A stretch of 64,000 bases of DNA from an uncultured Spirochaetota bacterium. Its GTDB lineage: Bacteria; Spirochaetota; Brevinematia; Brevinematales; JAOACQ01. The translations under genes and the position numbers were made by a program. Position 1 is the first letter of the stretch; each line of letters opens with the position of its first letter. The stretch spans positions 160,001 to 224,000 of the forward strand of contig CAWAOD010000013.1 in the NCBI GenBank assembly GCA_963783575.1, given 5' to 3'. Below, piece by piece: positions 17,090 to 56,232 of the stretch. The notes below the pieces were generated by a model, which saw only the letters and a list, made by a program, of their open reading frames with translations, ran no database searches and was not told the DNA's origin.

Positions 17090-17163
17090 GGGTGTATAGC
17101 TCAGTTGGTTAGAGCGCAGCCCTGATAAGGCTGAGGTCGGTGGTTCGAAACCACCTACACCCA
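17090..17163 (+). tRNA. tRNA-Ile(GAT)
   Basis: GGGTGTA/TACACCC acceptor stem, CAGCC-ctGATaa-GGCTG anticodon arm, TTCGAA T-loop. Confidence 0.97.
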
Positions 17164-17168
17164 TGTGC

Positions 17169-17241
17169 GGGGATATAGCTCAGCTGGGAGAGCGCCTGCC
17201 TTGCAAGCAGGATGTCAGGGGTTCGATTCCCCTTATCTCCA
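17169..17241 (+). tRNA. tRNA-Ala(TGC)
   Basis: GGGGATA/TATCTCC acceptor stem, TGC anticodon, TTCGATT T-loop. Confidence 0.97.
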
Positions 17242-42367: not shown

Positions 42368-42397
42368 TTGACAGACCGTTAAAGGCCATGCTATAAT
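42368..42397 (+). promoter_or_regulatory. Consensus sigma70 promoter pointing into the cassette array (Pc-like)
   Basis: TTGACA-18bp-TATAAT with TG extension. Confidence 0.7.
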
Positions 42398-42406
42398 CTT
42401 ACCAAT

Positions 42407-42456
42407 GGGGAAATGTGCCGTATAGCGTTATGCTTGCCGCGAATTTCCCCTTTTTT
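42407..42456 (+). terminator. Hairpin + T-tract directly after the promoter
   Basis: GGGGAAAT...ATTTCCCC followed by TTTTTT. Confidence 0.55.
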
Positions 42457-42596
42457 ATTTATTTAGTTTACTATGTCTTATTAAGGGTGGATTTGGAGAT
42501 TGATTTGGATTTTTTTATTTAAAATTGGTAGTTTAAGAAGTTTGGATATATTGAGTTGGAAGAATTTTTAAAAATAAGTAAAATTAAATAATAGGG

Positions 42597-43442
42597 GTGA
42601 AAATAATGAGTGTAATGAAAGGTATAATAGCTTCTACAAATGTGGATTCAGTAGGTGATCGATTTACAAAAGAAGCTATTCTTAGTATGATTGAACAATC
42701 GAAAAATAATTATATAAGAGTAACTTATGAACATGACCCTAGAAAAATACCAATTGGAAGAATTATTGATACTCAATTAATAGAATTTGATGATGGAAAT
42801 TTTGGAATAGAAAATACTTTTGAAATTTTTGATGGAAATAATCCAGTATGTGATGATGAAAAAAAGAGTTAGTTATAGAAAATTTTGAAGATTCTGAAAA
42901 TCTAACTATCTATTATGATGATAGTTATGTAAATAATAATTATTTAAATAAAATTGAAGAATTAAATAATTCTATACAAAAGCATAGCAATTTAAAATAT
43001 TTTGGTAAAAAGTCAATAGAACCATTAAGTATATTAACAATTGCAGGTGTCTATATTGCTGGTAAAATTTTTGAAGGATTTCTAAATAAAATTGGAGAAA
43101 AAATATATTTAAGTTTATCAGATAAATTATATGAAGTTTTAAGGTTACAAAAAAATAAAGATGAAAAAGTATTAGAATTTTCTCTTAATATCAAAAAAGA
43201 TGATAATTTATATCGTATTAATATATTTTTTAACTAATCCAACAAAAGATGATATTAATATTGTTATTAAAAAAGGTTTCAAAAAACTTGATGAACAAAT
43301 AAACAATTATTTAAATCCCTCAATAAAAGAAATTGATATAAATTATAAAAATTGCAAATTTGAAATTACTTATATGCTTAATGGTAAAGCTAAAATATTA
43401 ATTCCAAAAGATGAATTTAAAATTATAGATATAATTGTATAA
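42597..43442 (+). pseudogene. Cassette gene: prohead-protease-like N-terminus + hydrophobic segment, two homopolymer frameshifts
   Basis: Frames join at A7 (42859-42865) and T6 (43226-43231); middle frame 42866-43234 is open; resembles 43621-44424. Confidence 0.7.
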
Positions 43443-43458
43443 TAATTAAAAAAACACC

Positions 43459-43592
43459 GTACAACGGCCTTGTAGAAAAAGTTAATTTTCAGACAATAAT
43501 CTCCTCTTTTCAAACAACCTTTGATGGTTTTTATCCTTAAGCAGGATGAGATGTGTGGCGGGTTGAAGGAGTTCGGGTATTTCGAGGTGTAT
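43459..43592 (+). repeat. attC-like repeat, type A
   Basis: GTACAAC...GGTGTAT with conserved core tgtagaaaaagttaatt...caaaca...ccttaagc.ggatgaga. Confidence 0.85.
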
Positions 43593-43620
43593 GAAATGAT
43601 GCTGTTCGCTAGAGGTAAAC

Positions 43621-44424
43621 ATGAAATTTATTAAAGATCAAATTATTTCTGGTACAGAAATTGATTCACAAGGTGAAAAGTTAACTATAAAAGATTTAGA
43701 TTATTTAGCTGAAATTAGTAATCCCAGAGTAAATCTAGGTCAAAGGCATGACTTATCATCAGACAATATAGGCTATATTGAAAATTTTAGAGTTGTAAAA
43801 AGTGAGAAATATTCAGATGAATATTTTTTAATTGGTGATGTATATTTTAATACAGATTCAATTGATGAAGCTCTCAATGGTTTTAGCTTTTCGTTAACAA
43901 AAGTTATTTATGGTGATGCTTCAAAAGAAGCATTATCTGTGTTTATACCATATCCTTATTATAATAAGGATGATTTATTAAAAGATATATATAATAATGA
44001 TTCAAATATAATAGTTGGGAAGTGGATTAAAAAAGAAGCCGATCCTTTATCAATAATACTAATATTAGTTAATTTCCTTTTAAAACCTGTATGGGATTCT
44101 GTCTGGAAAGATAAAATTTATCCAATTCTTATTAAAAATATTAATCAAATAAATAAACTAATGAATAGTACTAATAAATATAATATTATCCAAATTTGTT
44201 TTAATAAATATAAATTCTTAGTTTATTTTATTCCTGACAATGATAATAGTCCAGAGTGTTATCTTGGAGTTAAATTATCTGATGCTATTAACAGAGCTTT
44301 TGAATTCTCAAAAAAATATGATAATATTTCTAAAATTAAATTTTTGTTTGATACACCAACAAAACAATATATACCTTTTATGATTGAACTAAATAATGGA
44401 GAATTTATTAATATACTAAGATGA
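43621..44424 (+). CDS. Cassette gene: prohead-protease-like domain + hydrophobic segment, function unknown
   Basis: SGTEIDSQGE, HD....IG and GFSFS motifs; DPLSIILILVNFLL hydrophobic stretch. Confidence 0.7.
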   Translation: MKFIKDQIISGTEIDSQGEKLTIKDLDYLAEISNPRVNLGQRHDLSSDNIGYIENFRVVKSEKYSDEYFLIGDVYFNTDSIDEALNGFSFSLTKVIYGDASKEALSVFIPYPYYNKDDLLKDIYNNDSNIIVGKWIKKEADPLSIILILVNFLLKPVWDSVWKDKIYPILIKNINQINKLMNSTNKYNIIQICFNKYKFLVYFIPDNDNSPECYLGVKLSDAINRAFEFSKKYDNISKIKFLFDTPTKQYIPFMIELNNGEFINILR

Positions 44425-44437
44425 ACAGCATCACTTC

Positions 44438-44593
44438 GTACAACGGCTATGTAGAAAAAGCTTATTTCAGAAAATAACCTTCCCTTCTCAAACAACCTGT
44501 AATGGTTTTTGCCCTTAAGCGGGATGAGAGATGCGGGGGAGTTTGAAGGAGATGGCTGGAGGGCTTGGGTAGTTCGGATATTTCGAGTAATAC
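44438..44593 (+). repeat. attC-like repeat, type A
   Basis: GTACAAC...GTAATAC, long imperfect hairpin with CCCTTAAGCGGG apex. Confidence 0.85.
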
Positions 44594-44655
44594 GAAATGC
44601 TGAATTATTTGAAGATAAATACACACAAATCTTTACGGATTATATGGAGATAAAT

Positions 44656-45462
44656 ATGATTGAAAAAGATAAGTATGAAAATTTATTAAATAATTTTGAT
44701 TTAGGGGCATCAACTGCAGAAAATGATCCACTTTTGGAGGCTGCCAAAATTGAGACTCAAGAATTCTATGATTTATATTGGAAAGATCGTATTGATATAA
44801 TTAAGGGAATAAAAGGTTCAGGAAAGACTGCATTATATAGACTATTATTTTTTATAAAAGATTATTCCATAGAAAAGAAAAATTTATTTTGTATCTTTGG
44901 TATTGAAGCATCAGGTGATCCGGTATTTCGTTTATTTTATCAAGAATTCGAGAATTATACTGAGATTGAGTTCGAAAATTTTTGGAATATTTATTTTATC
45001 CTTTTAATAAATAATTTGATTGAAGAAGATAGTTCATTAAAAGATAAGCTAAAACTTGATAAAGATATTATAAAAAAAATAATAAATTCAATGGGAATAA
45101 AAATAACAAAAAATCAATATTCTTTGAAGGATTCAATAAGTGGAATACAAATATTATTTAATTCAAAATTAAAATTTGGGGTAAAAACAGATATAGATGA
45201 AAATCTATTACCAAAATCTGTTACTCCATTAATTGAAATTGAACCTCATATCCTTGAAACCATTAAAATAAAACCTATTTATATTACTGAATTTAAAGAA
45301 AAAATTACTAAAATATTAAGTAAACATGATATTAAGATATGGATTATGCTTGATCGTTTAGATGAAGTTTTTCCACATCGCAGTCATATTGAGAAAAGCG
45401 GTTTAAAAAGTCAATCAGATTATCACTTCATTATATCTTACTTTATCAAACATGCTTACTAA
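44656..45462 (+). pseudogene. P-loop ATPase cassette (Sll1717/FunZ-like), truncated after Walker B
   Basis: DLG...AEND, GIKGSGKT Walker A, WIMLDRLDE Walker B; runs into unrelated sequence at ~45410; GGAG RBS before ATG 44656. Confidence 0.65.
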
Positions 45463-46183
45463 TTCACAAATAATTCAAGTCTGGACAAATAGTTATACTT
45501 CAAATGTTATAACCAATGTACTTACAAATATTGCTGGAACTGGAACAGCCCCAATTTGGCAGACAGTATTTTTTGATGATTTTAATAGAGCGGATGGAAA
45601 TTTGGGTGTAAATTATATCCTATCTAATTCAAACTCAACAACATCACTTTTAAGTAATATGGTCTTTGTTGAAAATACAAATTATGTTTATGGTTCAGGT
45701 AACAATTCTTATTATATTATTTTATATTCTCAGCCAATTACAAATAATAGAATTCGCTTATCATTTAAACTTAAAACTTTATCATTCGATGGGAATGGAT
45801 TTAATATCGGTTTGGGAAATGGTAATAGAGGACAATATGATATATTAGGAATGACTATTATTGGTTCTGGATTTACACCATTTGGATTAAATCCAGGTTT
45901 ATTTTTAGGTGGAACAGGTAATTATACAAATATGGCTTTTCAAACATTGCCTAATACTTTTTATAAGCTAATATTAGAAATTAATAGAAGTTCATCTAAT
46001 CTGATTGGTGAAATAAAAGATGATTCTGATAATAGTATAGTTTTGGGTTCTGTAACATTAACTAATCAAACTTTATTAAGTATATTAACAAATAATTTAG
46101 TAACATTAAGTTTTATGTACCCTGGTAATGTTACAAATTATCAGATTTATTATGACGATTTCAAGATCGAAAAGTTTGAATAA
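45407..46183 (+). pseudogene. Probably 5'-truncated Thr/Asn-rich exported protein
   Basis: Frame open from 45407, no signal peptide or RBS; FFDDF...YYDDFKI beta-sandwich-like ends. Confidence 0.5.
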
Positions 46184-46283
46184 ATTAGTATATTTTCTTT
46201 AATTTGTTGTCTAATTTAGAATAAACTAAAGCCATTTGATGGACGTTTCAAACGGCGTCCTGCCGTTTTTATACCGACAATGC

Positions 46284-47628
46284 GGTAGTGTCAAGGATTT
46301 TGCGCACATTTTATAACCCTCAATCTGACAATGAATTATGAAACTCTTTCATTCGTTTGAATATCATTCATCAATTCCATATTCAAATACTTCTTCTCAC
46401 TCCAGACCGAACCCGCAATATGCCTGAGCCTGGCAGCTACCAACATCAATGCCGATTCTCCATCAGGAAAAGCTCCTACAACCCTTGTTCTTCTACGGAT
46501 TTCTTTCATTATCCTTTCAAGGCCATTATTGGTCCTGATCCTTTTCCAATGTTCAACCGGAAAACTATAATACGAAAGTGTTTCTTCAGTTCCGGTTTCT
46601 ACCAATTCGGCAGCTTTAGGCAATTTCATTTCCTTTAACTTTGAAACCACCATACTTTTCTTTCTCCTGGCTTCTTCAATGTCCTCCTGCGCATGGATCG
46701 CTTTTAGCATCGTCGCTACTTCTTTCACTTTGCCCTGCGGTACTAAACTAAAAACATTTCGGTAAAAGTGTACTACACATCTCTGCCATTTTGATTTCGG
46801 ATAGAAGTCAGGTATGATCTCAACCAAGCCTAATACTTTGTCCGATACAATCAGCTCTATGTTTTTCAGACCTCGCTCCTTCAGGTATTTCAGAAAATTA
46901 TTCCAGCTGTCTTTATCTTCCTTTGCTCCTTCTGCTACACCAATTATCTCCCTGAAGCCTTCTTCATTAACTGCTATTGCTACTAATACCGAGACATTTT
47001 TAACCTCACCTCCCCACGTCCGCTTGAGCCATATCCCATCCATATATACATACGCGTAATGACCTTTTATTGGTTCTTTCCGCCATTTATCTATTTCATC
47101 ATATATCTTTTTATTTAGGTTACTAATGGTGCCGGGTGATACCTTTGTTCCCCATAATGCTTCTGTGATATCTTCAACCCTCCTTACAGACACGCCCGCC
47201 AGATACATCTCAATTAATGCTTCTTCCACCGATATCTCACGCCTTTTATATCGCTCAATAATCGCTGTTTCAAATGTCACTTTCCGTAGCTTGGGAATTT
47301 TCAATTTGACTTCACCGGCTCTTGTTAATAGTTTTCTCTCGTAATGTCCGGCTCTGTTACCTTTCCGCTGATCGTTTCTCTCATATTTCTGTGCATTACA
47401 TAGACTATCTGCTTCAGCGTCCAGCATCGCGTTTAATGTTTCTTCAACTGTTTGTCGTACAAATTTTCCCAGATGATCTTTGACTTTTTCCTCGTTAATT
47501 TCGATAATATTATCAGTCATATTAAGTCCTCCTTCTGACTTTTTGGTTTTTGGTCGAACCTTAATATCGTCAGATTGAGGACTTTTTTTTATCCCTTTTT
47601 AAAATGTGCGCAAATATTATACGTTATC
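46284..47628 (-). mobile_element. IS256-family insertion sequence
   Basis: Imperfect terminal IRs sharing TTTGCGCACATTTT; encloses the transposase; no target duplication seen. Confidence 0.9.
46336..47520 (-). CDS. IS256-family (Mutator) transposase
   Basis: EMYLAGVSVRRV, YMDG, VSD..LGL, QRC.VHF.RN, RTNN.LER. Confidence 0.95.
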   Translation of the reverse strand: MTDNIIEINEEKVKDHLGKFVRQTVEETLNAMLDAEADSLCNAQKYERNDQRKGNRAGHYERKLLTRAGEVKLKIPKLRKVTFETAIIERYKRREISVEEALIEMYLAGVSVRRVEDITEALWGTKVSPGTISNLNKKIYDEIDKWRKEPIKGHYAYVYMDGIWLKRTWGGEVKNVSVLVAIAVNEEGFREIIGVAEGAKEDKDSWNNFLKYLKERGLKNIELIVSDKVLGLVEIIPDFYPKSKWQRCVVHFYRNVFSLVPQGKVKEVATMLKAIHAQEDIEEARRKKSMVVSKLKEMKLPKAAELVETGTEETLSYYSFPVEHWKRIRTNNGLERIMKEIRRRTRVVGAFPDGESALMLVAARLRHIAGSVWSEKKYLNMELMNDIQTNERVS

Positions 47629-47812
47629 AAGAGGCTACGGCTGCGGTGCTCGGGTTCGCCCGTTAAAGTATTATTTTTAGAGGTAATTTTCAGAATGACA
47701 CATTATTTGGTGTATAGAGAAAATATTATTAACGGGCTCACCAAACCCGCAAACCTAAGCGCGTGGAGCTGGCGCTAAGGTTTGCGGGCTTCGTATAGCC
47801 ACACCGTTGTAC
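47629..47812 (+). repeat. attC-like site, type B (left end lost at the IS256 junction)
   Basis: Nested hairpins CCCGTTAA..TTAACGGG and CCCGCAAACC..GGTTTGCGGG, ending in GTTGTAC. Confidence 0.7.
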
Positions 47813-47902
47813 GCAATTTTACACGATTTTATTTTTAAAGTTATAAAGATATTTTTTTATAAAAGTTTATCTTTTAATAATTATTTTGTTAGGAGAAACG
47901 AT

Positions 47903-48292
47903 ATGTGGTTATTTATCATTGTAACAATTATTTCATGGATTATTTTAACCTTATTAAGAGTTGGCCTCCATCTTACACTTGCCAATGGATTTAAAATTAA
48001 ACTTGCTAATGGTCATTGGATTTATCTTATTCCACAAATAATTTTGATAATTATTTATTCTTACATAATAGTTATTTTATTCCATAATTTTGATGCAATA
48101 TATTTTTTTATTATGGGTTTAATTTGGCTTGTGCTTGTATTGTGCTTTGAATTTATTGGAACATTAATTATCCAAAAAAAGAGTTTAGAAGAATTATTTG
48201 AAGGTTGGAAGATATGGAAAGGACATATATGGACTTTGGTATTGCTATCACATTTAATTATTCCTTTTATTATTAAAGAGTTTCTTAAATGA
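47903..48292 (+). CDS. Cassette gene: small multi-TM membrane protein
   Basis: AGGAG RBS, about four hydrophobic segments, bounded by complementary cassette ends. Confidence 0.75.
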   Translation: MWLFIIVTIISWIILTLLRVGLHLTLANGFKIKLANGHWIYLIPQIILIIIYSYIIVILFHNFDAIYFFIMGLIWLVLVLCFEFIGTLIIQKKSLEELFEGWKIWKGHIWTLVLLSHLIIPFIIKEFLK

Positions 48293-48326
48293 TGTTTTGC
48301 TCTATGCATGATTTGTGCAAAACTGC

Positions 48327-48484
48327 GTACAACGGTCTTGTAGAAAAAGTTAATTTCAGGTAATAATCTTCCCTTTCCAAACAGTATGTTTGTTTTTACC
48401 CTTAGGCGGGAGGAGAGACGGGGTTTGGCTTAAATGAGAAAGCGGGGGGCGAGATTTGCGAAGATTGTATATCCCGAGTTATAT
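48327..48484 (+). repeat. attC-like repeat, type A
   Basis: GTACAAC...GTTATAT with the conserved core. Confidence 0.85.
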
Positions 48485-48575
48485 GCAATGCCGGATCAAA
48501 GTCGTAAATTAATATAGCCCCGATATCCGTACCGGTGTATAATGTGCCCTGTTTTATTTCAGATAGGAGAAATTT

Positions 48576-49478
48576 ATGGGAAATGATATTACAAATGGTA
48601 GATTGAAAAATAAAAATATTACCATTTTTCTGCTCTCAATAATAGCCATTTTTCTTATATTAACCATTTCGATAGCTGGATTTGTTTTAGATGATGGTGG
48701 TAAATCGTATTATTTTTCTTCTTTAAGAGGGGAAAAAGTTGAAATATATGGCGGTCATGGTCTCTATCAATATGATAGTGTTCTTAAAGCAGTAGAGTTT
48801 AAAGGATACAACTGGATTAATATAATTATTGGTTTACCATTATTTGTGTTGGGATTATATTTATTCCATCAAGGCAACTTTAAAGGACAATTAATTCTTA
48901 CAGGTCTTTTTACCCATTATGCCTATAACTATTTAATTGGTGTGATGGGTAATGCTTTTAATATTATGTTTTTAATTTGGACAGCATTATTTTCATTATG
49001 CATATTTGGATTATTTTTTATTTTAAAAAACATTGATTTTAAAACATTACACAATAAATTAGAAAAGAGTTTCCCCAGAAAAAGTCTTTCTATATATATA
49101 ATAATATTTGGTTTATTATTTTATATTCTATATTTACCAAATATTTTAAATTCTTACATAAATGGTAATCCACCAACATCATTAGAGATTTATACAACTC
49201 TTGAACTGGCTTCTTTAGAAATGGGAATAATGGCGCCACTAAGCATTATTGGCGGAATACTTTTATTTAAAAAAATTGCTGCTGGTTATATAATTGTATT
49301 AACTTTAATTTTTACTTCTATTATGACCTTTTTATCTTTAAGTGTTTCTGCTTTATTTCTTTATTTCTTTTATCATAAAGGGGCTTTTAATTTTCAATTT
49401 ATTTTATTATCGATAATTTCAATTGCTTTTATCTCAATAAGTTATAAAAATATCAAGGGAGAAGATATATCCTTATAA
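48576..49478 (+). CDS. Cassette gene: polytopic membrane protein
   Basis: AGGAG RBS, multiple TM segments, S.RGEKVEIYG.GLYQYDS loop. Confidence 0.75.
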   Translation: MGNDITNGRLKNKNITIFLLSIIAIFLILTISIAGFVLDDGGKSYYFSSLRGEKVEIYGGHGLYQYDSVLKAVEFKGYNWINIIIGLPLFVLGLYLFHQGNFKGQLILTGLFTHYAYNYLIGVMGNAFNIMFLIWTALFSLCIFGLFFILKNIDFKTLHNKLEKSFPRKSLSIYIIIFGLLFYILYLPNILNSYINGNPPTSLEIYTTLELASLEMGIMAPLSIIGGILLFKKIAAGYIIVLTLIFTSIMTFLSLSVSALFLYFFYHKGAFNFQFILLSIISIAFISISYKNIKGEDISL

Positions 49479-49548
49479 AATTGTAAATAAAGGAATTAAG
49501 AATCGCCATCCGCGGCTTAGATATTATACTGAAAGTTCGATCCGGCCA

Positions 49549-49694
49549 TGACAACGGCCCTGTAGAAAAAGTCTAATTTCAGGTAATAATCCTCCATTTC
49601 CAAACAGTCTGTTTGGTTTTTGTACTTAAGCGGGATGAGAGACGCGGGAGTGGTTTTGGGGAGTTCTGATATTTTGTATTGTTTGCCATTGTAT
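49549..49694 (+). repeat. attC-like repeat, type A
   Basis: TGACAAC...ATTGTAT with the conserved core. Confidence 0.85.
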
Positions 49695-49780
49695 GGCGGC
49701 TTTTAATAATTTCAGTTTTTATGATTTAAAATTGTAAAATTATTATTGATTTAATTACAGCTCATATTTATAATTAAGCT

Positions 49781-49990
49781 ATGGAGGGATTCATGGATAC
49801 AATTACAAGAGAAAAATCAGATTTAATGGAAATAATAAAAGATTTTCCTGAAAACAAACTTATTGAGTTATTGGATTTTGCTCAATTTTTAAAATTAAAG
49901 AAACAGGTTGAAAACCAAGTAAATCTAACATCATTTAATGATAAAATTATTAAAGAAGATAAAAATCTATTAACTAGATTAGCTAAATGA
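49781..49990 (+). CDS. Probable antitoxin
   Basis: Small ORF coupled to doc (ATGA overlap), ends LLTRLAK; own promoter TTGATT-17-TATAAT at 49746-49774. Confidence 0.75.
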   Translation: MEGFMDTITREKSDLMEIIKDFPENKLIELLDFAQFLKLKKQVENQVNLTSFNDKIIKEDKNLLTRLAK

Positions 49991-50364
49991 TTAAGATTGA
50001 AGAAGTTATCGGTATACAAGAAAAACTGATCGAAAGCTTTGGTGGAATTAAAGGTTTAAGGGATTTGGGTTTACTTGATTCTGCTTTAAATCGTCCTTTC
50101 ATAACATATGAGCAAAATGATCTTTATGATTCTATTTTTGAAAAAGCCAGTATTTTGATTCTTGGAATAATACAAAATCATCCATTCATTGATGGGAATA
50201 AAAGAATTGGTTATTTTGTATTTAGGGCTTATTTATTATCGCAAGGATATGATATAAAAGCGAATGAAGATGAAAAATATGATTTTGTTATAAAAATTGC
50301 TAAAGGGGATTTATCTTATTCGGATATATTAAAATGGTTAAATAAACATAGTATTGAAGCATAA
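49987..50364 (+). CDS. doc: Doc/Fic-family toxin
   Basis: GLRD.GLL.SA..RP and HPFIDGNKRIG Fic motif. Confidence 0.92.
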   Translation: MIKIEEVIGIQEKLIESFGGIKGLRDLGLLDSALNRPFITYEQNDLYDSIFEKASILILGIIQNHPFIDGNKRIGYFVFRAYLLSQGYDIKANEDEKYDFVIKIAKGDLSYSDILKWLNKHSIEA

Positions 50365-50371
50365 ATGTGCC

Positions 50372-50468
50372 ATACAACGGCATATAACGGCGGCTATAAT
50401 GCCTCATGCTTGCTCGCTTAGTCCCAGGCATGTCAGGGCTTCACATGTTTTGGTTTTTGCCCTCAAGC
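50372..50468 (+). repeat. Left half of an attC-like repeat interrupted by IS21
   Basis: ATACAAC start, ends ttggtttttgccctcaagc; continues at 53007. Confidence 0.75.
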
Positions 50469-50585
50469 TGGAAATGTCAAGAGTTTTTCCCATATCTGCG
50501 CTCGGGTAATTTCCCACCCCTTCCACAAGAGTTTTCCCCATACCTTCCACGTGAGTATTTCCCATAGTGAGGAGGCAAAGAATGG

Positions 50586-51335
50586 TTACTCAACCTCCTT
50601 ATTCAAATTTTGTATTCTGTAAGATTCTCCGCTCAAGTTATAAATATTTGAATGATGTAAAAGCCTATCCAGAAGAGCGGTTGTCATAATCGGGTCTCCC
50701 ATCATTTCAGCCCAATCCTGAAATCCCTTATTCGATGTTATCACAATTGATGTCTTTTCATACAATTCACTTACAAGACTAAAGAATAGATTTGCCTCCT
50801 TCTTTTCGATAGGTGTGTAACCTATCTCATCAATGATTAATAAGTGTGACTTCATCATCCGGTTCAGCCTGAAAGCAGAGCTTCTCTGGATGTCCGCCGT
50901 TTTCAGAAACTTAATGAGAGTAGTCATCCTTTCAAAGCAGACAATATATCCCTTTTCAACTGCCCGGATTCCGATACTAATTGCCAGATGCGTTTTCCCC
51001 AGCCCCGGAGACCCAAAGAACAACAGGTTATGATGATTATCAATCCAGCAGAAATCCAATAGCTGTGAAACATCCATTTTAGATATTCCATTCACTTTTT
51101 CAAAATTAAAACCTTCCACATCTTTGCGGACCGGGAAGTGTGCTCCTGCCATATTCCGCTGAAAACGTTTTTCCACTCTATAATTCAATTCCAGAGAAAG
51201 CAGCCTCTGCAGAAAACTCAGATAAGACTCTTTTGCCTTTTCAGCCTCACCAATTTCCTCATCAATCCGTTTTATCATACCCTTCAACCCGAGAGTTGTA
51301 AGCGCAGTTATGATTTGTTCTCTTATCTTCAACAT
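50586..51335 (-). CDS. istB: IS21 helper ATPase IstB
   Basis: GSPGLGKTHLA, LLIIDEIGY, ITSN, LLDRLLHH. Confidence 0.95.
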   Translation of the reverse strand: MLKIREQIITALTTLGLKGMIKRIDEEIGEAEKAKESYLSFLQRLLSLELNYRVEKRFQRNMAGAHFPVRKDVEGFNFEKVNGISKMDVSQLLDFCWIDNHHNLLFFGSPGLGKTHLAISIGIRAVEKGYIVCFERMTTLIKFLKTADIQRSSAFRLNRMMKSHLLIIDEIGYTPIEKKEANLFFSLVSELYEKTSIVITSNKGFQDWAEMMGDPIMTTALLDRLLHHSNIYNLSGESYRIQNLNKEVE

Positions 51336-52882
51336 TGCCGGCCCCCGATGGAGTCACAGAAACTCTGGTATTTCCCGATGTCTGATTTAGCTACTTCAAG
51401 ATAGTGTTCAGGATTCACTGAAGGCCTGACAATCTTTTCAACATTCAAGGGTATTTCTGCCTTTTCTGTTATAAAACAGTTCAGGTAATTATCCCACAAA
51501 TCCTTCATGGAATAACTATCACTCTCCAGGCAGTTTGAGATCGCTTGTGTAAGCTTCCCGGTATCAATTATCTTGTCCCTGAAGTATTTTCTTCCGGAAA
51601 GACATTGGTCCCTTACATAACGATTGAACTTCCTGAAATTACATTCAAGAAAATCCTTCCAGCCGGGAATATCAAAGTACCCGCTTACTTCTTCTTTCAA
51701 TAACTGCACAGTCTTTCCCATTTCCCGGATCATTGACCTGTTGGTTACAATCTGCCCCGGAATCACTGAAAGCCGGTATTCGGCGATTTGCTCTCCCGTT
51801 ATCCTGTCAAAGACAAAAAGCCGACTGCCCGTCTTGTAGATGTCCACCGAACCGTTCCTGTATTTTTCGGGAATATCATACTGGCTTGCATCAACTGCGA
51901 TCCGGCATTTATCGCTTACACTGCGCTCTTCCCTTGCTCCTATCCTGTCTTTACGGAATATCGAATTCCTGACAGATTGGAGATATGGTCTTTCCGTTTC
52001 AATCTCTATCAGTGGTATTTTCATTGTAGCCTGGGATATTCTCCCGTTGGCTTTTCTTTCCAGCCATTTCATCAGGCTTTCTTCCGCTTCCATTAAACTG
52101 TTGAACTCCCGGACTGAGAAGAAACCGTGCTTGATGAATTTGACTACGTTTTCAATCTTTCCCTTACTTTCCGGGTCAGCAGGTCGGCACACATACATTT
52201 TAAGACCCATTTCCCCGATGAAATACTGAAAGTCTTTCGTGTAGATGATATCGCCTGAGTTCTCACTCGCAACCATCGTGCAGTCCTGATCGATGACAAG
52301 TTCATGCGGTATCCCGCCCATATATGCGAAACAGTCCAACAGATGATTGATAAGGTCTTCTGTCCGGAATGGCCTCTCCTGGAGGGCCGCATACTTAAAA
52401 CGACTGGCGGATAACACCGCGGCAAATATGTAATACCTTCTGCCATATCTGTCGGTATATTGACCGAAATCAAGCTGGAGCTGCTTTCCATATGGCATGT
52501 CAGGCACTTTTGTGTAATACCGTCGCTTTTCATTCAAGGTAAGCTGCCCGCTTTCAATCAGGTAATGTACGAAATTCCTCATCGTATTTTCATTCGCCGG
52601 TAGTTTGCCTTTTACCTCCAATAAATAGTCATACAAAGCAGACATATTCAGCCGGATGTAATCATTCTTTTCATATACTTTCAATATGTCTGTTTTTATT
52701 CCTTCGAATTCTTTTTCACGGAAAGAGAATTCCATCAGGCTTTTCTGGTATTCGGAATCGTTCATAGCCCAATATTTTCGGACTGTCTTAATATCTATTG
52801 ACAGTTCCCGGGATACACCATTTTTACTTTTCCCCAAAAGTTTCAGTTTTTTTATGTCCTGATACATAATATTTTTCACCAT
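51329..52882 (-). CDS. istA: IS21 transposase IstA
   Basis: N-terminal HTH, QLDFG, GGIP.ELVID, P.SKGKIE. Confidence 0.93.
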   Translation of the reverse strand: MVKNIMYQDIKKLKLLGKSKNGVSRELSIDIKTVRKYWAMNDSEYQKSLMEFSFREKEFEGIKTDILKVYEKNDYIRLNMSALYDYLLEVKGKLPANENTMRNFVHYLIESGQLTLNEKRRYYTKVPDMPYGKQLQLDFGQYTDRYGRRYYIFAAVLSASRFKYAALQERPFRTEDLINHLLDCFAYMGGIPHELVIDQDCTMVASENSGDIIYTKDFQYFIGEMGLKMYVCRPADPESKGKIENVVKFIKHGFFSVREFNSLMEAEESLMKWLERKANGRISQATMKIPLIEIETERPYLQSVRNSIFRKDRIGAREERSVSDKCRIAVDASQYDIPEKYRNGSVDIYKTGSRLFVFDRITGEQIAEYRLSVIPGQIVTNRSMIREMGKTVQLLKEEVSGYFDIPGWKDFLECNFRKFNRYVRDQCLSGRKYFRDKIIDTGKLTQAISNCLESDSYSMKDLWDNYLNCFITEKAEIPLNVEKIVRPSVNPEHYLEVAKSDIGKYQSFCDSIGGRQC

Positions 52883-53006
52883 TCCTGCCTTCCTTTAATG
52901 AATTTTCATTAAAGGTAATCTTCAAGCCTCTCTATGGGAAATCTGTTTGTGACAGGTATGGGAATTTCATTTATTGCTACCCTGGTAAATTAGTTTATCA
53001 TTTCCA

Positions 53007-53087
53007 CAAGCGGGATGAGAGACGCGGGGTGGGTTGAAGGAGATGGAGGGGAGTGGTTTTGGGGAGTTCTGATATTTTGAGGTGTAT
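53007..53087 (+). repeat. Right half of the attC-like repeat interrupted by IS21
   Basis: caagcgggatgagagacgcgggg...gaGGTGTAT matches type A right arms. Confidence 0.85.
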
Positions 53088-53112
53088 AAAATAACCTTGC
53101 AAAGGAGAATCT

Positions 53113-53724
53113 ATGAGTACAAATAAAATTCAAACAGTTGGATTGAAACCTGAAGGAATCAAAGGACGAATTGCTGGTATAATAATGAATTTTATACATA
53201 ATAAACAATATAAAAATATTATCAATAAGTACATAATTGATATAATTGACTCAAAAAATCAGGCATCAATACTTGATATTGGATGTGGAGGAGGAAAATT
53301 AATAAATATTCTTTATACAATGTTACAAAATTCAAAAATCTATGGAATTGATCATTCAATTGATATGGTTAATCTTTCAAAAAAAATAAATAAGAAAGGA
53401 ATTGTAGATGGAGCAGTTGAAATTATACAAGGTGATGTTAATAAGCTACCATTCTCTGATAAATTTTTTAACATTATAACTGCTTTTGACACTATAAATT
53501 TTTGGAAAGATTTAGATATTTCTTTAATGGAAATTAAACGAGTTTTGAAACAAAATGGTATTCTTTTTATAGTTAATGGCTACCCGAAAGCAGGAACAAA
53601 ATGGTATGATTTTGTAAAATTTAAAAGTGATGATGAATATAGAGATTTTTTGACTGAGAATGGTTTTAAAGAAATAAATATAGTTATTGAAAATAATACT
53701 ATTATAATACAGGCATTGAAGTGA
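53113..53724 (+). CDS. Cassette gene: class I SAM-dependent methyltransferase
   Basis: ILDIGCGGG, GIDHS, LPF.D..F, RVLK.NG. Confidence 0.9.
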   Translation: MSTNKIQTVGLKPEGIKGRIAGIIMNFIHNKQYKNIINKYIIDIIDSKNQASILDIGCGGGKLINILYTMLQNSKIYGIDHSIDMVNLSKKINKKGIVDGAVEIIQGDVNKLPFSDKFFNIITAFDTINFWKDLDISLMEIKRVLKQNGILFIVNGYPKAGTKWYDFVKFKSDDEYRDFLTENGFKEINIVIENNTIIIQALK

Positions 53725-53744
53725 AACATTTGCAAGGTTACTTC

Positions 53745-54033
53745 GTACAACGGCATTATATGAAAAGTTAATTTCAAGTAATAATCCTCCCTTTCCAAAC
53801 AGTCCTGTTTGGTTTTTGCCCTCAAGCGGGAGGAGAGACGCGGGGCGTGTTGAAGGAGAAGGCGGGATGGTCAGTGTCAAGTAACCCACAGGGGCCGAAG
53901 GCACCGCACGACCCCAGGCAATGTTAGGGCTTCGACAGTTTTGGTTTTTTTCCTGATTTGGCATGTTTCCCACACTTTCGCTTTCCACGACAAATTTAGA
54001 TGTTTTACGAAGGTCATATATAACGAGTTGGAC
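53745..54033 (+). repeat. attC-like repeat, type A, with an extended composite right part
   Basis: GTACAAC + type A core to ~53870, then a segment similar to 50423-50458, ending GTTGGAC. Confidence 0.7.
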
Positions 54034-54074
54034 GAAATGTCCTGCCGGCTTTTAATTTATAAATAAGAAACAGC

Positions 54075-54120
54075 TTGACATATAACATTATTAATAGTAC
54101 TATATATAATACTATTAATA
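54075..54120 (+). promoter_or_regulatory. TA promoter and operator
   Basis: TTGACA-17-TACTAT overlapped by a perfect inverted repeat TATTAATAGTA-N10-TACTATTAATA. Confidence 0.7.
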
Positions 54121-54133
54121 AGGAGATTATTTT

Positions 54134-54391
54134 ATGGTTCATACTATTACAGCGAATGATCTTAAAACAAAAGGGGTCAATGCCATCGATGAAGCAACAC
54201 ATGAAGGAAGCGAAGCATTTATATCAATCCGAGGTAAAAATAAATTTGTTGTTTTATCTCTGGATAAATACAACTACTTAAGAGAATGCGAATTGGAAGC
54301 CGCATTATTTGAGGCAAGAAAAGATATAAAAAATGACAAATTCTTTATAGAATCCGTTGATGATCATATCAAGAGAATTAAAAATGCCTAA
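54134..54391 (+). CDS. Phd/YefM-family antitoxin
   Basis: TITANDLK.KG...I..RGK.K.VV pattern; overlaps the toxin start. Confidence 0.85.
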   Translation: MVHTITANDLKTKGVNAIDEATHEGSEAFISIRGKNKFVVLSLDKYNYLRECELEAALFEARKDIKNDKFFIESVDDHIKRIKNA

Positions 54392-54656
54392 GATTTTTTA
54401 TACTGAAAGTTATAATAAAAGAGCTTCAAAATTTATAAAAAAATATCCTGAATTAATTGGACAATATGAAAAAACATTAAACCTAATGGAAATTGATCCA
54501 AATCATCCTTCATTAAGATTACATAAACTAAAAGGAAAATTGTCTGAATTATATTCAATTTCTATAAATATTTCTTATCGAATCACAATTGATTTTATAA
54601 TAGAGAACGGCATCATTATTCCGATTGATGTTGGATCTCACGACGATGTGTATTAA
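54384..54656 (+). CDS. RelE-superfamily toxin (YafQ/plasmid-stabilisation-like)
   Basis: P.HPSLRLHKLKG, SI.ISYRI, DVGSHDDVY; ATG 54384. Confidence 0.88.
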   Translation: MPKIFYTESYNKRASKFIKKYPELIGQYEKTLNLMEIDPNHPSLRLHKLKGKLSELYSISINISYRITIDFIIENGIIIPIDVGSHDDVY

Positions 54657-55744: not shown

Positions 55745-56151
55745 TATCAAACCTCCTATCTGAATATTTAAAAATCCCAATTTTTGTTATATATACTTAA
55801 AAATATAGGTTTAAAAATTAAGCTTTTTCGTAAGTATGCGATTTATTTATCGTTTATTTTTTTCCGGCTGATATCGAATTGTTTTTATCAAAGGCTATTG
55901 ATAAGGCTGTTCTTCATTAATATCACCTTTATAACTTTTAATAAATGCAACATCTCCAACATCAACAGCCTCAAATAAAGTTTTCATATTGATTATTTCC
56001 CTTTCACTATTTTTTAATCCTGAAAAATAATAAGATATTAATTTTAGAATAAAGTATTGAAAAAATCATGAAAAGTGATTTATTATTTTATTAACCAATG
56101 GAAAATTCCAATTTATGAAAATGATAATGCTGATACATTAAGTCAAAGAGT

Positions 56152-56232
56152 CCTTAAGCGGGAGTAGAGAAGCGGGGCGGGTTTGAAGGAGAAGGCGGAG
56201 GGTGGGTTTGGGTAGCTTGTTTATTTCGAAAT
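56152..56232 (+). repeat. Right-half remnant of a type A attC-like repeat
   Basis: ccttaagcgggag...gtttgaaggagaagg...tttgggtag...tatttcga; left arm missing. Confidence 0.75.

Follow-up and report, generated by a model that had tools for sequence, protein, structure and literature searches.

In the attC sites of classical integrons, complementarity of the core boxes and a bottom-strand bias arising from G-T pairs are known features, according to passages of PMC5027507. An insertion in the integrase IntI is called essential for integron function in part of the text of PMC8138268, and an excerpt of PMC4792948 states that a reliable model of cassette genesis was lacking at the time. Here, an array of small gene cassettes was analyzed in a window of 64,000 nucleotides, meaning the whole stretch of DNA under study, from an uncultured Spirochaetota bacterium (contig C13 of assembly G000, GenBank GCA_963783575.1; G000:C13:160001-224000). 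Between 42.5 and 54.7 kb of the window, short co-oriented genes are separated by a repeat of 120 to 275 bases, and the same section holds one IS256 and one IS21 insertion sequence (IS) element, two toxin-antitoxin pairs, and a methyltransferase. The assembly comprises 4.9 Mb in 18 contigs and is 89.85% complete; no tyrosine recombinase was found on contig C13.

The initial annotation had pointed out that the two ends of a cassette are complementary to each other. We conclude that these ends, here called arms, are probably the outer half of an extended attC hairpin that would form in the free circle of a cassette and not otherwise, with a G-T wobble predicted at position 11 on the bottom strand, and that this hairpin is likely used by an integron-like recombinase lacking the IntI insertion; in the window, IS1182 stubs and attI-like cores occupy the place of the missing hairpin cores, and the array is likely immobile. 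Only the length of the arm and the fixed wobble go beyond the known core-box complementarity. The terms R'', R', L'', attI, and CALIN (attC cluster lacking an integrase) follow passages of PMC4889954, PMC5027507, PMC8138268, PMC8618304, PMC8352920, PMC4792948, PMC9137128, and PMC13616975.

Results

Complementarity between the two ends of a cassette

All five end matches reported for the window were recovered with their scores. These comprised the ends of cassette c1 (43586-43607 and 44423-44444; 19/22), in which the initial GTT has decayed to GGT and the 3' arm ends in the R'' AAC, those of cassette c3 (47806-47826 and 48313-48333; 18/21) and cassette c6 (53081-53103 and 53729-53751; 19/23), a 9-mer at 49689/50369 (9/9), and an 8-mer at 48490/49539 (8/8). 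The 9-mer represents arm positions 12-20 of the cassette at 49678-50388, and the 8-mer lies in cassette c4, which scores low in register because its R'' side is about 4 bases short. The arms were also found to differ between cassettes, as had been claimed: outside an 8-base core, the own-end matches of c1, c3, and c6 were 13/14, 10/14, and 13/14, respectively, and matches to other ends ranged from 0 to 7. The unit at 42555-43465 and the one from 44587 onward had no clear arm.

The comparison was extended to the whole assembly, in which 46 cassette starts were catalogued, 29 of them after attC right arms and 17 after attI-like or hybrid sites. Each start was paired with the first downstream R'' box, and 36 pairs were used; 10 starts were left out, for which no end was found, apart from one duplicate and one mis-registered start. 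Positions 13-21 matched at 6.75/9 with the own end and at 2.48/9 with other ends (permutation p ≤ 1e-5), and matches of at least 7/9 were seen in 23/36 own pairs versus 11/1260 cross pairs. The own-end match dropped to background past position 21-22 (35 cassettes), and positions 13-21 had no common consensus. In 31 of the 36 cassettes, the start has A at position 11 and the reverse-complemented end has G there, a combination that is mismatched as A-C on the top strand and pairs as G-T on the bottom strand. Furthermore, seven pairs of cassettes with similar arms but no shared cargo, among 34 well-paired cassettes, showed two-sided differences, as self-complementarity predicts.

The proposal that the arms pair in the circularized cassette and not across the site was borne out in the intact array on contig C5, because own pairs matched at 7.6/9 and across-site pairs at 2.0/9. 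When the C5 cassettes were circularized and folded, with z values from 60 single-base shuffles, with the window cassette c5 left out, and with the folds inspected for arm pairing, 16-23 arm bases were paired and the bottom strand was the more stable one in 9/9. A search for sequencing runs over 43400-50500 of the window returned none.

Arms in other genomes and in class 1 integrons

For other genomes, the inner hairpin was the sole criterion by which attC sites were located, and consecutive sites were paired, which gave 24 usable pairs out of 25. Positions 13-20 of these 24 cassettes matched at 5.17 with the own end versus 2.05 with other ends (p = 2e-5), and the A/G combination occurred at position 11 in 20/24; it was present in all 17 cassettes from three relatives, Gracilibacter, and an Atribacterota metagenome-assembled genome (MAG). 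Six cassettes from Chryseobacterium, Persicobacter, and G060 had shorter arms of about 12-15 bases (3.33 own versus 2.37 other). In the class 1 control, which consisted of nine cassettes from five of six plasmid loci, pairing stopped at 6-12 bases, no own-end excess was detected at positions 13-20 (1.89 own versus 1.72 other; p = 0.39), and A/G at position 11 was found in 0/9. Together with the passages of PMC5027507, this control implies that core complementarity is ordinary and that a long arm with a fixed wobble is not. A pattern for the attC right arm matched 4/401 genomes of the phylum; this pattern is narrow, and its counts say little about range. Metagenome scans with the attC pattern had no match.

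Recombinase linked to the arrays

A tyrosine recombinase gene with a frameshift lies at C5:457129-458178 of G000; behind it come an attI-like site and then, over about 26 kb, cassettes that have canonical hairpins. In the G000 assembly, no intact copy of such an integrase was found; intact copies occur in the genome G011, among them one at L049:4725-5780 on the minus strand, and one of the copies scored 237.7 against NF040815 (cut-off 220) and 212 against TIGR02249 (cut-off 265). The alignment of the G011 integrase with VchIntIA (PDB 2A3V) showed a gap (251-276 versus 181-248), and the VchIntIA segment between residues 181 and 248 is missing from the G011 protein. The array-linked recombinases of relatives lack about 41 residues of the IntI insertion, and the distance from the catalytic R to the HxxR motif was 89-90 residues in 10/11 array-linked proteins (the motif was not read in one) versus 131 in IntI1. 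In a phylogenetic tree, the array-linked integrases grouped with IntI1, apart from Xer (95/91), with one IntI on a long branch. No protein exceeded the TIGR02249 cut-off in G000 or in five array-bearing genomes.

Close homologues of the array-linked integrase were found in 14/151 genomes of the phylum, most of them with an attI-like site just downstream, and an integrase search of metagenome scans returned two short contigs. The attI-like site lies 60-230 bases past the integrase on C5 of G000 and in most relatives shown; such sites were called attI by position and form. In addition, at least six attI-like sites in G000 have no adjacent intact integrase, and several of these head small arrays (C4:7089, C4:26890, C5:114977, C5:359000, C9:382286, and C15:196982). 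At C5:3400-32400 and C15:6500-27700, tyrosine recombinase genes lie side by side in pairs that recur; these may be RIT-like elements.

The repeat between cassettes in the window

The units in the window are separated by a repeat that is not an attC. Over its first 36-67 bases, this repeat shares 82-92% identity with the right end of an element of 1.8 kb that has terminal inverted repeats and encodes an IS1182-type transposase, and its last 15 bases matched an attI profile at 10/10 hybrid or head junctions and an attC profile at 0/10 (background). The window junctions were unfolded (z of -0.1 to -1.2 in 5/5), and the attC sites on C5 had z values of -3.8 to -7.7 in 8/9. GTT was kept at only one of seven hybrid junctions, at 48478; it was intact at 25/25 canonical sites, a figure biased by the fact that these sites were located by GTT. 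Between R'' and the attI-like right end lie 105-260 other bases, including a middle module that occurs only in the C12 and C13 arrays and resembles an attC interior by eye only. The hybrid copies are 69% alike per column; the whole hybrid was not found in 60 relatives searched, one of which had the IS stub alone. Two other identities for the repeat were rejected, that of a two-ended miniature inverted-repeat transposable element, since only the IS right end is present, and that of a decayed attC right arm, by spacing and profile. The junction at 50389 has an L''-like start and no stub, suggesting that the attI-like right half came earlier and the IS later.

An IS-end profile, built from six ends with the AAC excluded, found 26 sites, 25 of which lie directly after AAC. 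In 7/7 two-ended copies of the IS1182-type element, AAC was present on both sides and the attC resumed behind. Among five related IS loci, from two spirochaete records, Gracilibacter, and an Atribacterota MAG, four lay at the AAC of attC-like hairpins and the fifth was too short; the nearest relative of the attC-targeting IS lies in a Spirochaetota record. The transposase has DUF772 and DDE_Tnp_1 domains, and its only family match was NF033551, at 215.7 bits, below the cut-off of 270, for a broken frame of 405 amino acids (aa). In the loci compared (L020:4162-5379 and other G000 copies; L024), the reading frame of the G000 copies examined stops near residue 405 and the remainder is encoded in a different frame, and the copy in the genome G001 has a whole 495-aa frame.

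Cassette movement and reuse of arms

Movement of single cassettes was indicated in other arrays. A 38-base empty cassette made up of the two arms alone was present in four copies in one Chryseobacterium plasmid array, once at attI (this array, L095:10104-17686, also holds an IS110 element and a group II intron), and one G011 cassette occurred at attI and again two places deeper in the array. The occurrence of a window unit in another neighborhood, which the initial annotation had suggested looking for, was found for the c5 cassette, which in G001 has a different upstream neighbor and is preceded by an intact attC that carries a full IS1182. Outside any cassette frame, c3 has homologues in G011 and c5 in G010, a finding that is neutral with respect to reshuffling. 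A 99.8% identical 2.6-kb block of two cassettes and an IS end occurs with different upstream neighbors at C5:472317-474954 and C9:383975-386612 of G000; it was not counted as a single insertion because either the two cassettes and the IS moved together or the assembly has duplicated the block. The earlier view that units were inserted singly at the R box is supported elsewhere, in Chryseobacterium, G011, and G001, and is not supported in the window, where the inter-unit repeat is a non-folding combination of IS1182 stub and attI-like core.

In G000 and G011, four cargos with no relation to one another are headed by a single arm family, in which position 15 has changed on both sides; the arms therefore look like reusable frames and not like barcodes. 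The earlier interpretation of the ends as a footprint of circular excision and reshuffling stood insofar as these are integron-type cassettes split at G|TT whose arms meet only in the circle; a passive, unique footprint is too simple in view of the fixed position-11 mismatch and of this arm family. A 60-base attC-like hairpin with identical flanks, perhaps an IS end, was observed three times in G011 (L046, L048, and L089).

Layout of the window array

Features lie on the plus strand unless stated otherwise. The array head is a G/T-rich leader ending in an attI-like core (42486-42555; attI profile 11.3 bits, background fraction 2.5e-5), and this leader is common to C12:17214 and C12:18515. Ahead of it, at 42368-42455, lie a sigma-70-type promoter with a 12/12 match and then a GC hairpin with a T run, a head that is duplicated ahead of the related C12 array (G000:C12 ~17095-17200) and may represent a promoter for the cassettes together with a leader RNA. 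Cassette c0 (42555-43465), with decayed arms and a gene in three pieces, is followed by hybrid junction r1 (43466-43585), composed of the IS1182 right-end stub, the middle module, and the attI-like core (first 36 nucleotides [nt] 92% identical to the IS end; attI 8.8 bits; no hairpin, z = -1.1). The cargo of c1 (43621-44424; 267 aa) belongs to no family: searches of Pfam, NCBIfam, PADLOC, and PHROGs gave no match, and Atlas gave hypothetical clusters only. A kinship of the c0 and c1 cargos was suspected and was not supported on comparison. Behind junction r2 (44445-44586; 82% to the IS end over 45 nt; attI 12.4 bits; z = -1.2) lies the broken unit c2 (44587-46183), a P-loop ATPase fragment (NF047389, below cut-off) fused to a second open reading frame that has a homologue at C9:533388; the unit's own 3' arm was not found.

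An IS256-family transposase gene on the minus strand (46336-47520; NF033543, 360 bits, cut-off 150) precedes the sole canonical attC right half of the window array, consisting of L' and spacer (47724-47805; 94% identical to a C5 attC; attC profile 25.2 bits). Cassette c3 (47806-48333), with A/G at position 11, is separated by junction r3 (48334-48477; IS end 90% over 63 nt; attI 10.5 bits) from cassette c4 (48478-49555), which has a 300-aa cargo, arm octamers at 48490-48497 and 49539-49546, and the shortened R'' side. Junction r4 (49556-49677; IS end 91% over 67 nt) has a weak attI score of 4.1 bits. Cassette c5 (49678-50388) encodes a DUF2281 and Fic/Doc toxin-antitoxin pair; its arms match perfectly at positions 12-20, with A/G at position 11, and its 92% homologue is the cassette in G001. 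The following junction is interrupted: its left part (50389-50468) combines the L''-like start with the middle module, its right part (53007-53080) a G-rich stretch with an attI-like core (7.7 bits), and between them lies a minus-strand IS21-family element (50469-53006; istA and istB) with a 5-base target duplication, CAAGC. Cassette c6 (53081-53751; methyltransferase, Pfam), the long junction r5 (53752-54026; IS end 84% over 67 nt; attI 8.6 bits at 54027), and a unit with a Phd/RelE-like toxin-antitoxin pair (54027-54656; weak Pfam matches below cut-off; R'' not detected) complete the array. Rfam had no match in the window array, and PADLOC and PHROGs had none for the window cargos.

Outside this array, a second, convergent unit on the minus strand (58524-56735) has a well-kept attI-like site, two genes of unknown function, an R'' box, and the left half of a canonical attC, with arms offset by about 5 bases. 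A solitary right half of a hybrid junction that has lost its GTT lies at 56150-56229, and a fragment of a different IS1182-family transposase lies at 23-730.

Discussion

The proposed mechanism would start from the own-end complementarity of about 21 bases, with its sharp stop and fixed A/G at position 11. In folding models, the canonical G000 sites form one long stem that is predicted to be more stable on the bottom strand. By analogy with class 1 biochemistry, the folded bottom strand would be cut at AAC and joined to attI, and the stem would be split at G|TT with one arm going to each end. The presumptive catalyst is the insertion-less integrase, which in relatives is encoded a short way upstream of an attI-like site and of arrays in the same orientation, and on C5 of G000 as a broken copy. 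The IS1182-type element inserts at the R'' AAC and duplicates this AAC, and deletions may then have left about 50-60 bases of IS end on a junction with an attI-like right half, which would fix the cassettes in place. The window array is likely a dead relic, the decayed form of an array that belongs to a long-stemmed, integron-like variant.

Several results weigh against this interpretation. Mismatches outside position 11 had no bottom-strand bias (10 bottom, 12 top, and 16 other), the role of the position-11 wobble is a prediction from folding, and the sole close pair of cassettes with homologous cargo had 4 one-sided and 0 compensatory changes. The shorter arms in the Chryseobacterium, Persicobacter, and G060 arrays, which have the same kind of integrase, imply that the enzyme family does not require a 21-base stem. 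Insertion-less integrases also occur beside IS91-type genes without arrays, and both assemblies are incomplete, such that a true IntI could be absent from them. In the window, attI scores were weak at two junctions (3.4 and 4.1 bits) with a profile built on 7 sites, and the middle module had no BLAST match to 14 canonical attC sites.

Four other explanations were weighed. The arms might be a neutral scar of cassette birth, one end having been copied from the other and the outer stem having no function; the missing consensus at positions 13-21 and the sharp end, the shorter arms in lineages with the same integrase type, and the one-sided drift of the one close homologous pair would fit. Copying predicts a perfect match, yet position 11 differs alike in 31/36 and 17/17 cassettes, and four cargos that are unrelated share an arm family whose position 15 has changed on both sides; we therefore consider such a scar unlikely. 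Because the fixed mismatch argues against plain copying, we regard the arms as belonging to the site and as traveling together with attC in the form of a frame. It is also rather improbable that the hybrid repeat of the window is a working delta-attI-type site at which double-stranded attI x attI recombination continues to shuffle the units. Each junction ends in an attI-like core at attI spacing, one hybrid follows five different window cassettes and one on C12, and passages of PMC12901181 and PMC4792948, respectively, describe recombining delta-attI cassettes in class 1 integrons and an attI x attI activity retained by IntI; however, the retention of GTT at one hybrid junction in seven, the 69% likeness of the copies, the lack of an intact integrase of this type in the assembly, and the absence of the whole hybrid from the 60 relatives searched, with the IS stub in one, speak against it.

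A role of the arms in RNA, by pairing of both ends of each cassette transcript, would agree with arms that closely flank the reading frame and with the c1 3' arm beginning at the stop codon, but it is very improbable given that position 11 of the transcribed strand forms an A-C mismatch and no wobble, that the arm limits coincide with the AAC and GTT triplets, and that folding favors the bottom strand in 9/9. Hardly credible at all is an origin by chance matching in AT-rich DNA or by assembly artefact: although the 8- and 9-base matches are weak taken alone, the G-rich junctions look low in complexity, and one frame break is common to all IS1182 copies, the permutation p was ≤ 1e-5, the same anatomy occurs in independently assembled genomes, and canonical hairpins are cleanly assembled elsewhere in G000.

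A broader proposal can be put forward tentatively, although we regard it as somewhat more doubtful than not. Several phyla may hold a second class of integron whose recombinase, lacking the IntI domain, reads an outer stem of 21 bases marked by a fixed G-T wobble; arms and attC would together form a reusable, even empty, mobile frame that captures new genes, and IS1182 elements of one clade, cutting at this same AAC, would turn such arrays into fixed gene islands. Cassette birth would become testable if the frames are reusable, and the arm frames common to unrelated genes and the 38-base empty cassette would give a handle on it. Long wobble-marked stems beside an insertion-less integrase would permit a bench test of folded-site reading without the IntI insertion, and the IS1182 element suggests one way for a gene-capture array to die. 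The window itself is a worn example; what it mainly adds is the target rule of the IS, the hybrid type of junction, and the reuse of frames.

Comparison with known systems

A literature search found no description of the long arm or of its fixed wobble, of arrays whose integrase lacks the insertion, or of an IS1182 that targets attC, with the limits that older papers on 59-base elements, IS1111-attC, and group IIC-attC introns may mention longer pairing and that ISfinder lay outside the search. Like a CALIN, as outlined in passages of PMC4889954, the window array has no integrase nearby, is broken by insertion sequences, and has degenerate sites; unlike a CALIN, most of its junctions are no longer attC hairpins, and the window holds half sites only. 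The delta-attI cassettes of class 1 and 2 integrons, as far as the excerpted text of PMC12901181 describes them, similarly keep R'' and have the remaining attC replaced by a piece that ends in an attI core. Here, in contrast, an IS stub and a G-rich module intervene, one hybrid is found on six or more cassettes, and GTT is mostly lost.

IS1111-attC elements and group IIC-attC introns, which are named in the same excerpt of PMC12901181, are also mobile elements that target attC. The element described here differs from the IS1111-attC group in having IS1182-type DDE domains only and no DEDD (IS110-type) transposase, and from both in its terminal inverted repeats and its 3-base duplication of the R'' AAC. 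A preference for inverted-repeat targets is shared with IS1272, which, according to part of PMC5678879, replaces the repeat without duplication; the present element keeps the attC and duplicates AAC.

The closest likeness is to the cassettes and attC sites of classical integrons (class 1 IntI1; Vibrio cholerae IntIA, PDB 2A3V), with which the arrays share promoterless one-gene units split at G|TT, complementary R'' and R' boxes, an inner hairpin, a bottom-strand folding bias, an attI-like first site, and toxin-antitoxin cassettes. They differ in a longer complementarity (about 21 bases, as against 6-12) that includes a fixed A/G at position 11, in attC sites of 140-240 bases, and in an integrase that is about 41 residues short in the insertion, has an extra N-terminal part, and is co-oriented with the array.

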